DNA of 64,000 nucleotides, from positions 67,518,001-67,582,000 of the forward strand of contig OZ024745.1 of NCBI GenBank assembly GCA_964016885.1. Direction: 5' to 3'. How positions within the stretch are numbered: position 1 is the stretch's first letter; each line of letters starts with the position of its first letter. This stretch comes from Eledone cirrhosa. Lineage: Eukaryota. Both the position numbers and the translations under genes were made by a program. Positions 58,261-63,696 of this stretch are shown one piece after another. Under the pieces are notes generated by a model. The model worked only from the letters and a program-made list of their open reading frames with translations. It made no database searches and was not told the origin of the DNA.

Positions 58261-58665
58261 TTACTTACGGTAAATATTGATGCAATTCAATTCAAGCACT
58301 CAACGTACTTTTTCCATATAGGAATGACGGAGTATATTTAGAATAAGAAAATGCAAAGTGGTTTCAGATGTTAAAGTCCTTTATTGATAAGGCTGTGATA
58401 CGTATTTCAATGACGACAGTGGCCACGGGATTCCAGGTTCCCAGTGCCATGATCTCATCAGACAGCTTCTTACTTTGACCTTTCCTTTGTCATTTCAATT
58501 TGGATTGCCTCAGGAACGTAACCTTATTATGTAAGAAGCTGCCTGTTGAGATCATGGCACTGGGTACCTGGAATCCCGTGGCCACTGTCGTCATTGAAAT
58601 ATGCATCACAGCCTTATCAATAAAGGACTTTAACATCTGAAACTACTTCACATTTTCTTATTCTA
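58261..58665. mobile_element. Fold-back Penelope-like pLTR element between microsatellites
   Basis: ~135-bp inverted arms 58339-58473 / 58531-58665 with a 57-bp spacer; contains a hammerhead and AATAAA. Confidence 0.75.
58391..58467 (-). ncRNA. Type I hammerhead ribozyme
   Basis: GCUGU-CUGAUGA-[imperfect stem II]-GAAA-UACGUA-UC/ACAGC: full core, stem I pairs, palindromic stem III. Confidence 0.75.
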
Positions 58666-59200
58666 TATATATATATATATATACACACACATATATATAC
58701 ACAGACACATATATATACACACACACATATATATACACACATACATATATATATATATACACACATATATATATATATACACACACATATATATACATAC
58801 ACACACACACATATATACACTCACACACACATATACATACACACACACATATATATATATACACACACACACACACATATATATATACACACACATACAT
58901 ATATATACATACACACACACACATATATATACACACATATATATACACACACACATATATATACATACACACATATATATACACACATACATATATATAT
59001 ATACACACACACACACACACACACATATATATATATATATATATATATATATATATATATATATATATATATATATATATATATACACACATATACATAC
59101 ACACACACATATATATATACACACACACACACATACATATATATACACACATATATATATATATATATACATACACACACACACATATATATATATACAT
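58664..59200. repeat. Compound (TA)n/(CA)n microsatellite
   Basis: Seen directly. Confidence 0.97.
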
Positions 59201-59251
59201 ATGTTTATGTATTCTGCAAGATTCTTGATGTAAAGTCGTATGTTGAAACTG

Positions 59252-60246
59252 ATATATTTGGAGATGGATGGTCATGTGGCCAATACAGCCATATCATTTT
59301 CACTTTATCTTTACTGCTCGTTATTCATTCGTTTGACAAAGTTCTTTCGTCACACATTCTGTGATCTTCTCAATGATTACATGTTCTCTCTTGTGTCTCC
59401 TCTTTTTTCTAGTCTTAAACTTCTACTTCATCTTATTTTTGTTTTGTGGTGTGTTGTTCGTGTCTACGTATGTCAAGTCTATATGTATGTGTGGGTTTGT
59501 ATATTTTGCTGTTTGTGTCTTTTATTTTCTATTTTGTTTTCGGTCGTGGACTGTTACTATTCCACTCGTCTTTTTGTTGTTGTTTTTTTTCGTTTCAGGC
59601 TGCCTCTCCTATGCATGACGTTGTCCTGTTTCTGAATCATCCCTCTGTACATCAACTACCAAACTAGAAATGTAGTCTATAGGATAAGATGTACAGAGGG
59701 ACGATTCAGAAACAAGACAACGGCATACATAGGATAGACAGTAGTATAGGAGAGAGATTAAAGGAACACTGGTGAGAACTTAAGGAGGAGAAAAGCTACT
59801 CGGCGCTATGCCAAGATGCCAAACTGGAACATAGAGGCACAATAGATAACATTGAAATAAAGACCCTAACCACACATAGAACTGACACAGCACTCAGACA
59901 AATTACAGAAGCCACACATATAATAGAAGATAAACCTAGCCTGAACAGAAAACACGAATGGAATAGTAACAGACCGCAACTTTACGACAAAAAATGAAAA
60001 AAGACACAAATGGCAAAAGATACAAACCCACATAGACATGACAAACACATACACACACATGAAGACGTTTCACGAAAAACGCCCCACAAAAAAAAGACAA
60101 GATGATGAGGCACAAAAAAGAACAGGTAGTCATTTAAGGAGATAACAGAATGTGTGACAAATGAATAACAAGCAATAAAGATAAAGTGAAAATTATATTG
60201 TGTGTATATTGTTTTTTTATTGGCAACATGACCATTCCCAAATATA
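59252..60246 (+). mobile_element. Penelope-like element relic with GIY-YIG endonuclease pseudogene (59654-59961) and an inverted partial copy
   Basis: NVVYRIRC...AYIG*T..IGERLKEH...SAL...EH...LRQITEATHIIEDKPSLNRKHEW; 59252-59653 is an inverted, internally deleted copy of 59688-60246. Confidence 0.85.
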
Positions 60247-61825
60247 ACAATATGTTTGGTAATTTAAGGGAGATCTCTGCTGCTGATATTTTGGCTGATC
60301 TGACCTCCTTAGGGGAAATTTAGCCTTTGTTTAGAGGTAATAAATTTAAAGGATTTCTTCGTATACTAATTTCACTGATACAAGATCGAAATGCCATGTT
60401 CTTTCTGGTTTCTGTCTTTATTTCCTTTCTCCACGTTAGCCACTGGGATAGACGCATTAAGGGACGGACACTAATCTGATAGGTCTTGATTTTGTTAAAT
60501 AACTTTCCAAATCTCTGCTTGCGTGGTTGATCTTATTTGTACATGAAGGTTTGTGTATATAATTTAATCTTAATTGTGTTTTGCATTCGTGTGCGTATAT
60601 CATACTTATTTGTATGTAAATAATAACATTGAGGTTTATACCTTTTACGTCGCCTTTTGATATCGTATTTTGATCTTGGGTTTATGTTGCTTATTTCTTT
60701 AATGGATTGGGTATTTTGTTATTCTTTTTTTAGTGGGGAGGTTATGTTGTGTTATACAAACTAGACATCGTGTTACGTGGCATCACGTCATCTAGGTGGA
60801 TAGTTTGAAAGTTTAAAGGCGAGACAACAGGAGAAGGTGGAGCATGACCTATTAAGTAAAGGGGTCGTAGTCGCTGCATATAACAATAGCTTTTGGGGAT
60901 TTATTATATAGAAACTACGTAATATGACAGCTTCAGTTTAATAACGTCTTTCTTTCCCATTTGGTGATTATTGCGGTCCAGTTGCGCAAGCCGAGTTTGG
61001 GATTAACGTTTCACATCTATTTTCCATGCTTATATGAGTTAGAGGGTTTTCACATTTGGGGATAAGACTGTGTCTTATACATTCCATTATGGCTGGATGT
61101 CCTGACTAATGTTATATATATATATATATATATATATATATATATATATATATATATATATATATATATATATATATATATATATATATATATTCGGTAG
61201 TTAATACGTTGTACACAAACGAGCAGAAATATATAAGTTATATCTGTGTATATATATATATATATATATATACAACTTGATATATATCCTAATTATCTAC
61301 CAACATGAGCACTAATAATATACAAATTAGTACGTTCATTTCAGAACACCACTATAAGTGATGGGCATATAAATATCAGTTACATATTTCCTTGTAGTTC
61401 GTTGGATTATACATACACCTGTTGATGATAGACCCCAATTAAGTCAAAAATTGATTAAAGGGTTGGATGGTTCATCAGAGACGAAGTCAGTACTTAAAGC
61501 TTGTGACCTCTTAGATGGGATATTGAGTTTATTTTTACATGCTAGTCATACGTATGACAACCTCTCCTGAACACTTGGTGGAATGTGGGACCATATATAA
61601 GCAAGACACAGATCCTTGGCCTGCCTAGGAAATCCGGGGCTCAGCTTCAGTACTGACTTGGTCTATAAGGACCCATTCAACCCTTGTTAGCAGGGAAAGC
61701 AGATGTTAAAACGATGATGATAATATATAGAGAGATTCTGGAACTAGCTGTTGAAACAGCAGGAGCTCAGCAGTTGGGTCCCAACTCTTTATAATATATA
61801 TATATATATATATATATATATATAT

Positions 61826-62025
61826 ATCATCACCGTTTTACGTCCGTTCTTCCATGCTAGCATGGGTTAGACGGGTTGTCCTGTTGTGGGCAGTGTCCGG
61901 TCGGCTGACCTTGTCTTGCTCATACGGGAACTGATTCAGGCTTGATTTCTACAGCTGGATGCCCTTCCTAACACCAACCTCATTTACAGTGACTGCTGGG
62001 TGCTTTTTTGCCGTGGCACCTCCAC
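61826..62025 (-). mobile_element. SINE-like element, (GAT)n-tail family
   Basis: Homologous to 3726-3870 and 4250-4495. Confidence 0.7.
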
Positions 62026-62241
62026 TGTTGGTCAATCGATGATAAACATTGATTGCCAGATAAATTAACTGTGGATATATAAAAGACACAGAGGTGAAAA
62101 CCAATCCAAACCAAACAGTGAGTGTGTTTTATTATTATTTCTGGCAATATCATAACAATATGACCCTCCCCAAATATAACAACATTATATCATAATCATC
62201 ATAATATATAGTTAGAATTTTATTTGTTAACAATAATACTC

Positions 62242-62460
62242 TATACTTAAAGAAAAGTAGAGTATAAATATCATGGTTTTCTGCCCTATAGTTAAGTAGT
62301 TAAGCATTTACTGTATCGATATATATATATATATATATATATATATATATATATATATATATATATATATATATATATATATATATATATCGATACAGTA
62401 AATGCTTAACTACAGGGCAGAAAACCATGATATTTATACTCTACTTTTCTTTAAGTATAT
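62242..62460. repeat. Palindrome centred on a (TA)n tract
   Basis: tatacttaaagaaaagtagag...tactgtatcg (TA)n cgatacagta...ctctacttttctttaagtata, with an 8-bp indel between arms. Confidence 0.9.
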
Positions 62461-63097
62461 ATATTATATATATATATATAATATATATATATATATATAA
62501 TATATATATATATAATATATATATATATATAATATATATATATATATATATAATATATATATATATAATATATATATATATATATAATATATAATATATA
62601 TATAATATATATATATATAATATATATATATATATATAATATATAATATATATATAATATATATATATATATATATATATATAATATATATATATATATA
62701 TAATATATATATATATAATATATATATATATATATAATATATATATATATATATAATATATATATATATATATATAATATATATATATATATAATATATA
62801 TATATAATATATATATATATAATATATATATATATATAATATATATATATATAATATATATATATATAATATATATATATATATATATAATATATATATA
62901 TATATATAATATATATATATATATATATATATATATATATATATATATATATATATATATATATATATAATATATATATATATAATATATATATATATAA
63001 TATATATATATATAATATATATATATATATAATATATATATATATAATATATATATATATATATAATATATATATATAATATATATATATATAATAT
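62456..63097. repeat. Long interrupted (TA)n/(TAA) microsatellite; other (TA)n tracts at about 32950, 33184, 38180, 58216, 61113, 61794, 63555
   Basis: Seen directly. Confidence 0.97.
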
Positions 63098-63139
63098 ACG
63101 ATATTAAATAAATGGAAACTATATTTATAAAACCATATT

Positions 63140-63205
63140 TATTTCATTATATATATTTCAGGGATATCATATTAAAAATATGGTATGCCTTCATCAGACA
63201 AAATA
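63140..63205 (-). ncRNA. Type I hammerhead ribozyme (left arm)
   Basis: Exact reverse complement of 63360-63425. Confidence 0.75.
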
Positions 63206-63359
63206 CAATATAAACAGTCTTATAAATAGATAGATTTGACATACCTTGCAACTTCAACTTCCATTTAAAAAGTTGATTTACTACCAAATCAACTTTTTAA
63301 ATGGAAGTTGAAGTTGTAAGGTATGTCAAATCTATCTATTTATAAGACTGTTTATATTG

Positions 63360-63425
63360 TATTTTGTCTGATGAAGGCATACCATATTTTTAATATGATA
63401 TCCCTGAAATATATATAATGAAATA
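63360..63425 (+). ncRNA. Type I hammerhead ribozyme (right arm)
   Basis: UAUUUUGU-CUGAUGA-AGGcAUAcCAUAUU(uuu)AAUAUGaUAUcCCU-GAAA-UAUAUA-UA/AUGAAAUA; overlaps AATAAA. Confidence 0.75.
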
Positions 63426-63696
63426 AATATGGTTTTATAAATATAGTTTCCATTTATTTAATATCGTAAATATACTCCAAATACTTGTTGAGTGCTTTTA
63501 TATCAGTTATAAATATTTACTCGTTGTAACCCAACAATTTAAATAAAACTTTGCATATATATAATATATATATAATATATATATATATATATATAATATA
63601 TATATATATAATATATATATATATAATATATATATATATATATATATATATATATATATATATATATATATATATATATATATATATATATATATA

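Follow-up and report, generated by a model that had tools for sequence, protein, structure and literature searches.

What do two otherwise dissimilar insertions beside TA microsatellites have in common, and what might the common part do? The question is raised by a 64,000-nucleotide stretch of the Eledone cirrhosa genome (contig OZ024745.1, positions 67,518,001 to 67,582,000, forward strand), here called the window. A first-pass annotation had noticed that hammerhead-bearing elements at 58 kb and 63 kb share three short blocks separated by dissimilar spacers. Both insertions lie between TA-rich microsatellites and consist of a long palindrome followed by the blocks, which are exact at the claimed positions and follow one another alike in the two elements, the 58-kb one being read on the minus strand and the 63-kb one on the plus strand:

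58329-58340 (minus) and 63467-63478 (plus): block 1, TAAATATACTCC
58294-58304 (minus) and 63487-63497 (plus): block 2, GTTGAGTGCTT
58270-58278 (minus) and 63512-63520 (plus): block 3, AATATTTAC

The spacers are unrelated, measuring 24 nt at 58 kb and 8 nt at 63 kb between blocks 1 and 2, and 15 and 14 nt, respectively, between blocks 2 and 3. The analysis given below makes it quite likely that the blocks represent the 3' tail module of a Penelope-like element (PLE), and that a hairpin in this module would serve as a binding signal for the reverse transcriptase (RT) in target-primed copying that starts a few nucleotides upstream.

A hairpin shared by many repeat families of the genome

Within the window alone the recurrence of the blocks is weak: with up to one mismatch allowed, block 1 was matched at least twice in 24 of 100 window shuffles, and block 2 at least three times in 6 of 100. 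In the whole genome (3.0 Gb), the combination TAAATATACTCC-N(4-30)-GTTGAGTGCTT was found at 2,879 places and its reversed control at none; the joint recurrence of blocks 1 and 2 is not due to chance.

Two pairings had been proposed between the blocks, ACTC with GAGT and TAAATAT with ATATTTA. The former turned out to be the base of a hairpin whose inner stem covaries. Judged from the sequences, the universal core of the module is an RNA hairpin of the form NCUC-[variable stem-loop]-UU-GAGN'RCU (hairpin 1), in which the variable part forms a stem-loop of its own right next to ACUC/GAGU and leaves two U residues unpaired on the 3' side. Inner stems (5'/3') include CAA/UUG, CGU/ACG, CGUCAU/AUGACG, UACU/AGUA, UAAGGUA/UACCUUA, UAGGGUA/UACCCUA, UGAG/CUCA, and UGC/GCA. 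The outer TAAATAT/ATATTTA stem was dropped, the flanks being non-complementary in several subfamilies of the 63-kb type (A-type) when their alignment was read by eye, and the RNAalifold consensus of nine A-type subfamilies contained three local hairpins without any such stem. Since the outer stem is not conserved, blocks 1 and 3 are regarded as sequence that two related tail modules have in common; of the two copy-end sites, the upstream one has block 1 as its AU-rich linker. The caveat of the first-pass annotation that the blocks might be residual homology of one family thus applies to blocks 1 and 3, and not to the inner stem of the hairpin.

The relaxed pattern ACTC-[variable]-TTGAGT(A/G)CTT gave 47,061 matches in the genome as compared with 1,535 for the control, and these fall into many unrelated-looking families; the G variant alone gave 5,968 and 896, respectively. 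The related site annotated at 33 kb, ACTC...TTGAGTACTT (33042-33065, minus strand), is real and belongs to the most abundant of these families (F1). Distances from hairpin to the first (TA) run of at least 6 were 35, 35, 45, and 79 nt.

Covariation was assessed using 182 distinct instances from 72 rows of the G-variant list, other rows of the relaxed pattern, the remaining own-genome loci, and the window, which were reduced to 75 cluster representatives. In the register with a 2-nt bulge, the representatives had 2.39 consecutive inner pairs as compared with 0.89 ± 0.12 when partners were swapped (0 of 1,000 swaps as high), and the other bulge registers gave 0.39–0.71. Inner position 1 was most often UA (30), CG (21), or UG (7), and inner position 3 was AU (12), UA (11), CG (9), or GC (8); over inner pairs 1–3 there were 34 G.U and 12 A.C combinations. 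A smaller own-genome run gave an agreeing result. MAFFT misaligned the 5' anchor of hairpins of unequal length (alignment A1); the alignments used were A2, a subset, A4, restricted to hairpins of equal length, and A5, guided by a model. In A2, which contains 28 own-genome sequences with MAFFT-aligned anchors, 92.9% of positions were paired versus 87.2% after shuffling, and the covariation score was 0.244 versus 0.141 (0 of 500 shuffles as high). These comparisons indicate that the inner stem covaries across many families of the genome.

A twin hairpin ahead of Penelope-like open reading frames

The 63-kb type is called family A; each of 30 genomic copies ended about 90 nt past block 1 at ...CTTT(G/C)CA and was followed by (TA)n. 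A full-length copy (L031) was reached through same-strand block pairs spaced about 3.75 kb. It consists of a pLTR (an incomplete upstream repeat of the 3' region), the tail, a second, similar hairpin GCTCCAATACTGTTGAGCGCT, two open reading frames (ORFs; 529 and 219 aa) separated by a single frameshift, a 1.5-kb 3' untranslated region (UTR), and the tail again, the 3' region being a direct repeat flanking both ORFs. The ORFs have 288 homologues, typically of about 700 aa, the best being 44% identical and the nearest named ones coming from octopod; their protein-atlas neighbours carry RVT_1, HTH_animal, and GIY-YIG. Inspection of the translations by eye revealed YRDD, SDKT, CNCRDRSKC (CxCX5C), and a GIY-YIG-like core YVGST, with only one C between IIY and YVG (no CCHH, a mark of the Hydra clade). 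DKT and CxCX5C are likewise marks of this clade of PLEs with a C-terminal endonuclease (EN+), 'almost all' of which insert into (TA)n according to the available part of the text of PMC8557442. From its motifs and (TA)n flanks, family A is identified as a PLE with a predicted RT and GIY-YIG endonuclease and with Hydra-clade motifs. Its layout is also that of PLEs, with a pLTR partial tandem, 5'-truncated copies in inverted orientation, and a tail present at one end only. At 63 kb lies a head-to-head stump of this autonomous family; a tblastn search of the window with the family A ORFs was negative for PLE ORFs.

The second hairpin (hairpin 2) has the architecture of hairpin 1, with the closing pair changed on both sides from A-U to G-C. 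Its pattern, GCTCC-N-GTTGAGC(A/G)CT, was found at 2,802 genome places as compared with 47 for the control. In 20 of 30 fetched loci it is followed by a PLE ORF with an RT 38–100% identical to that of family A, which ties the motif to Penelope ORFs, an association that the first-pass annotation had proposed for testing; protein matches beginning at residue 1 start 41–77 nt past the start of hairpin 2. Genome-wide, the closing pair was G..C at 2,802 places, G..U at 1,065 (control 53, mostly one family), and A..C at 292 (control 104). This pattern, with G..U frequent and A..C rare, fits pairing in the sense-strand RNA. A family with about 1,000 genome places carries GCUCCAGGAACUUGUUGAGUGCU, whose hairpin has G.U as its fixed closing pair.

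With a profile of ten RT sequences (A3), 78 metagenome loci were recovered that encode RTs 31–38% identical. With nested matches included, the motif was present 152 times in these loci on the strand of the ORF and 9 times on the opposite one. Relative to the ORF start it clusters at about -34 to -51 and at about -87 to -139; a further cluster about 2.3–2.45 kb downstream belongs to the next unit. Among 66 unique metagenome hairpins, inner pair 1 was CG in 44 and UA in 20, and there were 2.5 consecutive pairs as compared with 1.41 ± 0.12 in the control (0 of 1,000 as high). Twelve equal-length metagenome hairpins (A4), and no others, served to build a covariance model (R1). This model found the window copies at 33037-33067 (E=7e-4) and 63472-63498 (E=0.02) and missed the 58-kb copy, in which the hairpin has a long insert; in the metagenome loci it gave 107 matches, 104 of them on the sense strand. 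Two further window sites that had been listed as related, ACTA...TAGTGCT (61308-61331, minus strand) and ACTC...GAGTAT (62238-62266), do exist. They deviate in lacking the UU bulge or having a different flank, R1 giving E=4.5 on the opposite strand only, and are at most candidate members. In alignment A5, 95.9% of cells were paired versus 81.9% after shuffling, cells changed on both sides numbered 95 versus 29, and the covariation score was 0.286 versus 0.098 (0 of 500 as high). The hairpin thus appears to be kept by compensating base changes even in very distant relatives.

These data bear on the simplest alternative, namely that the blocks are mere residual or recombined homology of tail modules and the pairing is a by-product of short AT-rich palindromes. 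Blocks 1 and 3 do behave in this way, TAAATAT/ATATTTA not being conserved in the nine A-type subfamilies; the sampled families are partly related, and single-sequence fold energies are unremarkable. In the inner stem, however, both sides change while pairing is kept, which no control reproduced (0/1,000, 0/500, and 0/500), sliding the partner by 1–3 columns in A5 lowers pairing from 95.9% to 20–53%, and G.U exceeds A.C. Moreover, the motif is present in elements with RTs only 31–38% identical and with unrelated surroundings. Residual homology, already disfavoured, is considered highly improbable as the whole explanation, and the view of the blocks as part of a structured, conserved, strand-specific cis element at the 3' end of hammerhead-bearing (TA)n retroelements held up.

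The motif is also carried by elements other than family A. The 58-kb copy is a member of a non-autonomous, ORF-less family (B) with a unit of about 1.3 kb including a 445 nt pLTR-like repeat. No ORF of at least 80 aa was listed for one family B locus (L152), and stop-to-stop frames in three copies did not exceed 106 aa, the longest ones running through microsatellite. What family B has in common with A is limited to the tail blocks, hairpin 2 (GCTCCAATTAGTTGAGCGCT), and the minimal hammerhead. Family F1 is apparently ORF-less as well.

Stumps of F1 (33073-33183, L060, L061, and L063) contain CGAAAC-GGCU-UGAGCUC-AGCCGUC, which resembles the 3' half of a hammerhead (GAAAC, a 6-bp helix III, and GUC); CUGAUGA was not seen in the copies examined, full-length F1 not having been sought. 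Another autonomous PLE family, H, was found at L129, L130, L132, L134, L142, L145, L150, L151, and L153 (C1), with an RT about 38–45% identical to that of A. Its hairpin 2 (GCUCC-UUCG-GUUGAGC) has a tetraloop as its cap, C(UUCG)G or C(CUCG)G, and truncated copies end at ...TTTTAATAAA beside (TA)n.

Copy ends and the proposed role of the hairpins

A 4-bp base, a 2-nt 3' bulge, a covarying inner stem, an RCU flank, and a copy-end site a few nucleotides 5' were found at three places of the window, 63474-63497, 58294-58333, and 33038-33065. The insertions that contain them are composed as follows.

63-kb insertion (family A):
62456-63093: interrupted (TA)n, the left target microsatellite
63094-63279 (minus): inverted, 5'-truncated, tail-less family A copy, the end of which (site 1) abuts the TA tract; arm of inverted repeat I1
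63142-63203 (minus): minimal hammerhead in the inverted arm, matched by the descriptor, with cleavage site 63148
63286-63471 (plus): direct 5'-truncated copy of the family A pLTR part
63362-63423 (plus): minimal hammerhead in the direct arm (CUGAUGA, 13-bp helix II, GAAA, UAUAUA loop, UA), with cleavage after 63417
63467-63473 (plus): AU-rich linker TAAATAT, the 5' part of block 1; the inverted arm stops here, 5–7 nt before the hairpin (site 1)
63472-63555 (plus): tail, the end of which, ...CTTTGCA at 63555, joins the TA-rich tract (site 2)
63474-63497 (plus): hairpin 1, ACUC-CAA-AUAC-UUG-UU-GAGU with a GCUU flank (blocks 1 and 2), within the second R1 match
63497-63513 (plus): family-specific tail hairpin UUUAUA-UCAGU-UAUAAA (RNAalifold, nine subfamilies)
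63523-63537 (plus): family-specific tail hairpin GUUG-UAACC-CAAC (RNAalifold, nine subfamilies)
63556-63696: interrupted (TA)n to the right

58-kb insertion (family B):
58216-58259: (TA)22 adjoining the tail end
58260-58340 (minus): tail with end ...CCGTAAGTAAA, made up of linker TAAATAT (58334-58340), hairpin 1 ACUC...GAGU (58298-58333), GCUU flank (58294-58297), and block 3 (58270-58278)
58341-58473 (minus): body with minimal hammerhead 58391-58467 and cleavage site 58397
58531-58671 (plus): inverted tail-less arm, ending ...CTTATTC at the compound microsatellite, with an altered hammerhead core (CTGTTGAG)
58664-59197: flanking compound (TA)n/(CA)n microsatellite, about 530 bp long with a quasi-period of 16–22 nt

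33-kb insertion (family F1):
32994-33072 (minus): tail with end ...CCTTCGT beside (TA)22 at 32950-32993, made up of linker AUUACCC, hairpin ACUC-UACU-ACCCUA-AGUA-UU-GAGU (33042-33065), and ACUU flank, with the first R1 match
33073-33183: palindromic body (direct arm and inverted tail-less arm), abutting (TA)n at 33183-33244

The palindrome at 63 kb (I1, 63094-63279/63286-63471) is 186 nt long with 99% identity, and that at 58 kb (I2, 58333-58473/58531-58671) is 141 nt long with 94% identity. Hairpin 1 of the 58-kb copy holds a 24-nt distal insert, and block 3 of the 63-kb copy is located between its two family-specific tail hairpins.

The positions at which copies end are not scattered. Of 19 palindromic copies with an inverted arm abutting TA, 15 have arms that stop 5 nt before ACUC (5–7 nt with shared TA/AT); these belong to families A (8), F1 (5), F10 (1), and B (1) and include all three window copies, and the remaining four stop 8, 9, 11, and 30 nt before ACUC. 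For family A, searches with exact 28-mers gave 2,357 tail-less ends joined to (TA)n and 2,158 ends running on into the tail, so that each kind makes up about half. In many cases an end of one kind has an oppositely oriented end of the other kind a few hundred to a few thousand bases away, and often both belong to a single inverted insertion. Past the end of the family A tail, 24 distinct copies go into TA, 5 reach hairpin 2 after 8–9 nt, and 6 continue otherwise; for family B, the corresponding numbers are 9, 1 (hairpin 2 at +7), and 3. There are two discrete end sites, site 1 lying 5–7 nt 5' of hairpin 1 and site 2 lying 3–9 nt 5' of hairpin 2; what separates these sites is the tail. In the metagenome contigs, only three loci had copy ends abutting (TA)n.

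This geometry has a precedent in Poseidon, the purified PLE protein of which cuts and extends both target strands and starts reverse transcription internally at two adjacent stem-loop sites with the tail between them (PMC11167929). In the mechanism proposed here, the protein of the element would recognise each hairpin and begin making complementary DNA (cDNA) a short way upstream. At a TA target, both nicked strands would be extended, each from one of the sites, giving palindromic stumps. The AU-rich linker may assist annealing of the TA-repeat DNA end: the 7 nt before the hairpin base have an AU content of 0.82 versus 0.67 thirty nt further upstream in the own genome, and of 0.77 versus 0.65 in the metagenome loci. 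That such a linker allows annealing of a TA-repeat primer is speculative. Family B, and probably F1, would be copied in trans because they carry the hairpin signal. Copy-end positions and the Poseidon precedent make a function of the hairpin in RT recognition and start-site choice likely, and from the same grounds we infer protein binding and mobilisation in trans. The suggestion of RT recognition in the first-pass annotation agrees with the copy ends a few nucleotides 5' of the hairpin.

Hammerhead motifs form the context of this hairpin and are separate from it. A descriptor of the PLE type (helix I, CUGANGA, helix II, GAAA, a 2–10 nt loop, UH, and helix I) gave 71 matches in the own-genome loci and the window and none in shuffles; a stricter version gave 28 sense, 0 antisense, and 0 shuffled matches in the metagenome loci. 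The strict version missed family A owing to one helix II mismatch and was relaxed for the own-genome count. Predicted cleavage sites in the window are at 63417 (plus), 63148 (minus), and 58397 (minus), and in most copies the site lies 55–71 nt upstream of hairpin 1. Core position 7, the sole hammerhead core position that is free to vary, is U, A, or G among family A copies. An initial model with a long helix III and cleavage right at the tail boundary was dropped in favour of a 1-bp helix III, which agrees with many families and with the literature; PMC4209133 describes a hammerhead type that likewise combines a 1-bp helix III and a palindromic loop. The description of the insertions as hammerhead elements is thus upheld under the minimal descriptor, and not by Rfam.

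Proximity to the ribozyme and to the ORF raises the possibility that the hairpins act otherwise, in translation or RNA stability as part of the 5' UTR or in hammerhead folding or dimerisation, with the tail defined elsewhere. Hairpin 2 indeed occupies a fixed place just upstream of the ORF, about 34–51 nt before the start codon, in the own genome and in the metagenome relatives; hammerhead cleavage 55–71 nt before hairpin 1 would leave the hairpins near the 5' end of the processed RNA, and the ribozyme is reported to be protein-assisted (PMC11167929). However, a translation signal would be useless in the ORF-less family B and apparently in F1, both of which keep hairpin 1, B also keeping hairpin 2. 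Moreover, there are two separate copy-end sites, each a few nucleotides 5' of a hairpin, in four unrelated families, and in Poseidon ribozyme mutants insertion was unchanged (PMC11167929). We regard this alternative as unlikely.

The motif could also act as double-stranded DNA, being a site that the GIY-YIG endonuclease recognises and that attracts insertions beside old copies and so builds arrays. The Penelope endonuclease of D. virilis required tail sequence to recognise and cleave a plasmid (earlier work cited in PMC11167929), and tandem, inverted, and tail-to-tail arrangements are common in the genome. Such a site, however, needs conserved sequence rather than compensatory changes, the excess of G.U over A.C indicates sense-strand RNA, and most copies lie in plain (TA)n with no older copy next to them. 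This makes a DNA site a very poor prospect, and recognition of the hairpin in RNA by the RT is preferred.

Several observations weigh against the latter. The hairpin 1 folds of single sequences are weak (-2.9 and -4.4 kcal/mol in two families), with z-scores of -0.3 to -1.5 that are not beyond shuffles, the exception being the isolated 58-kb hairpin stretch (z -2.7); the best fold of this stretch and of the full 33-kb tail is a competing hairpin of the AAGUAC/GUGCUU type. Three base pairs and the UU bulge were fixed by the search patterns, which leaves only the inner and closing pairs informative. The own-genome sample was selected by pattern and contains chance matches (19 of 75 without UU) and related families, genomic copy counts are family sizes rather than independent events, and alignment A5 was fitted to the structure of its own model. 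Family H has no pattern-matching hairpin 1 within 230 nt upstream of hairpin 2. Pfam gave no RT or GIY-YIG domain in the family A ORFs or four homologues, and Rfam hammerhead models missed the motifs of the window at both gathering score and E<=10. As to the linker, its AU enrichment (0.82 vs 0.67) is modest, and the Poseidon start site requires no target homology (PMC11167929).

A wider proposal can be put forward tentatively, as possible though not yet probable: the twin hairpin may be the universal template-recognition and start signal of Hydra-clade RTs, read by one protein, possibly a dimer, that would start cDNA about 6 nt upstream of each hairpin on the two nicked strands of the TA repeat. 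If this is true, one rule would account for the long-puzzling tail, for palindromic insertions, and for the many passengers without coding capacity, and relatives of telomerase would gain a template-boundary-like RNA element that is transferable to other RNAs. Template choice, tails, and mirror-image insertions of PLEs are an acknowledged open question (PMC8557442 and PMC11167929), and a covarying hairpin with fixed spacing to both end sites, conserved in distant relatives and common to autonomous and non-coding families, offers a concrete and cheap hypothesis for the existing in vitro system. The hairpin module would also explain the tens of thousands of unrelated-looking short repeats that crowd the TA microsatellites of the genome. 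Rfam, searched as the first-pass annotation had advised, gave no matches over the whole window at gathering score; at E<=10, positions 57500-64000 gave 65 matches, none a hammerhead and only one chance-level small nucleolar RNA row over the tail hairpins. The module, absent from Rfam, is a compact signature for annotating PLE ends and passengers.

Other repeats were seen in the window. At 62238-62460, two tail-only copies of another family, each about 85 nt, lie tail-to-tail around (TA)35 (62320-62389), both ending ...GTATCGA at the TA repeat; the right copy is broken by the next TA tract within its ACTCTA...TAGAGT hairpin, which has neither a UU bulge nor an RCUU flank. A near-perfect inverted repeat of about 115 nt at 59611-59730, not beside (TA)n, resembles a microRNA precursor in Rfam below threshold. 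The word CAA(C/T)ATGACC(A/C)T(T/C)CCCAAATATAACAA, found at 60224-60253 and 62156-62185 and in the flanks of L003 and L020, is the end of a further repeat family and recurs next to (TA)n elsewhere in the genome. A repeat starting CATCACCGTTTTACGTCCGTTCTTCCATGCTAGCATGGGTTAGACGGGTTGTCC after a (TA)n run, at 61830-62040 and in the flanks of two unrelated loci (L056 and L061), is probably another abundant short element targeting TA repeats.

Comparison with known systems

The end-site geometry matches that of Poseidon, with two start sites, a tail between them, and a stem-loop at the start (PMC11167929). Features shared with EN+ PLEs as described in the available text of PMC8557442 and PMC11167929 are pLTR tandems, inverted 5'-truncated copies, AT-rich or (TA)n targets, and an upstream hammerhead, and the 'tail at one end only' of Craig et al. 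(PMC8557442) is matched as well. Described PLE tails are 30–40 bp, whereas those found here are about 80–95 bp. In Poseidon the start is an 'AC-rich stem loop' 111–118 nt inside the ORF, whereas here a specific hairpin occurs twice in the 5' leader, is conserved by sequence and covariation across distant elements, and has copy ends a few nucleotides 5' of each occurrence.

With the Hydra clade, as characterised in the portion of PMC8557442 at hand, the elements share DKT in place of DKG, the CxCX5C linker, an RW motif near the N-terminus, (TA)n insertion, hammerheads, and a GIY-YIG located C-terminally in which the CC of CCHH is not visible. Elements of the clade are described as <3 kb in size. 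Metagenome relatives fit this with a unit of about 2.4–2.5 kb (about 2.44 kb between repeated hairpins), whereas the unit of family A exceeds it at about 3.75 kb because of the 1.5-kb 3' UTR.

The ribozymes agree with the type I hammerheads of PLEs in CUGANGA, a long helix II, GAAA, a 1-bp helix III, and location in the pLTR, and palindromic 6-nt helix III loops (UAUAUA, UAUGUA, and UACGUA) occur as in PLE hammerheads and retrozymes (available text of PMC4209133). Animal retrozymes without long terminal repeats are non-coding derivatives, like family B (PMC7229834 and bioRxiv 10.64898/2026.07.22.740005, in the parts available); family B is scattered in (TA)n as stumps and not in long tandem arrays. 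The hairpin itself is a separate element, and the ribozyme lies 55–71 nt upstream of it.

PLEs were already known to have tails, a (TA)n bias, hammerheads, inverted stumps, and internal RT initiation (PMC8557442, PMC11167929, and PMC4209133), so that the earlier remark 'possibly undescribed' is retained for the hairpin only. The available text of PMC8557442 does not contain the words 'hairpin' or 'stem-loop', the main text of PMC11167929 is also without such a conserved hairpin, and full-text searches and the main texts of PLE papers gave no published description of an NCUC-stem-UU-GAGN'RCU hairpin, though supplements may show one. What appears new is a sequence-defined, covarying twin hairpin conserved across the clade.

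The closest likeness in organisation is the eel pair UnaL2/UnaSINE1, in which the only part common to the autonomous element and to the passenger without coding capacity is a short conserved 3' hairpin that retrotransposition requires (PMC1636434). UnaL2 belongs to another RT class, initiates at the RNA's 3' end, and has one hairpin, whereas in the elements described here initiation is apparently internal and two hairpins are present.

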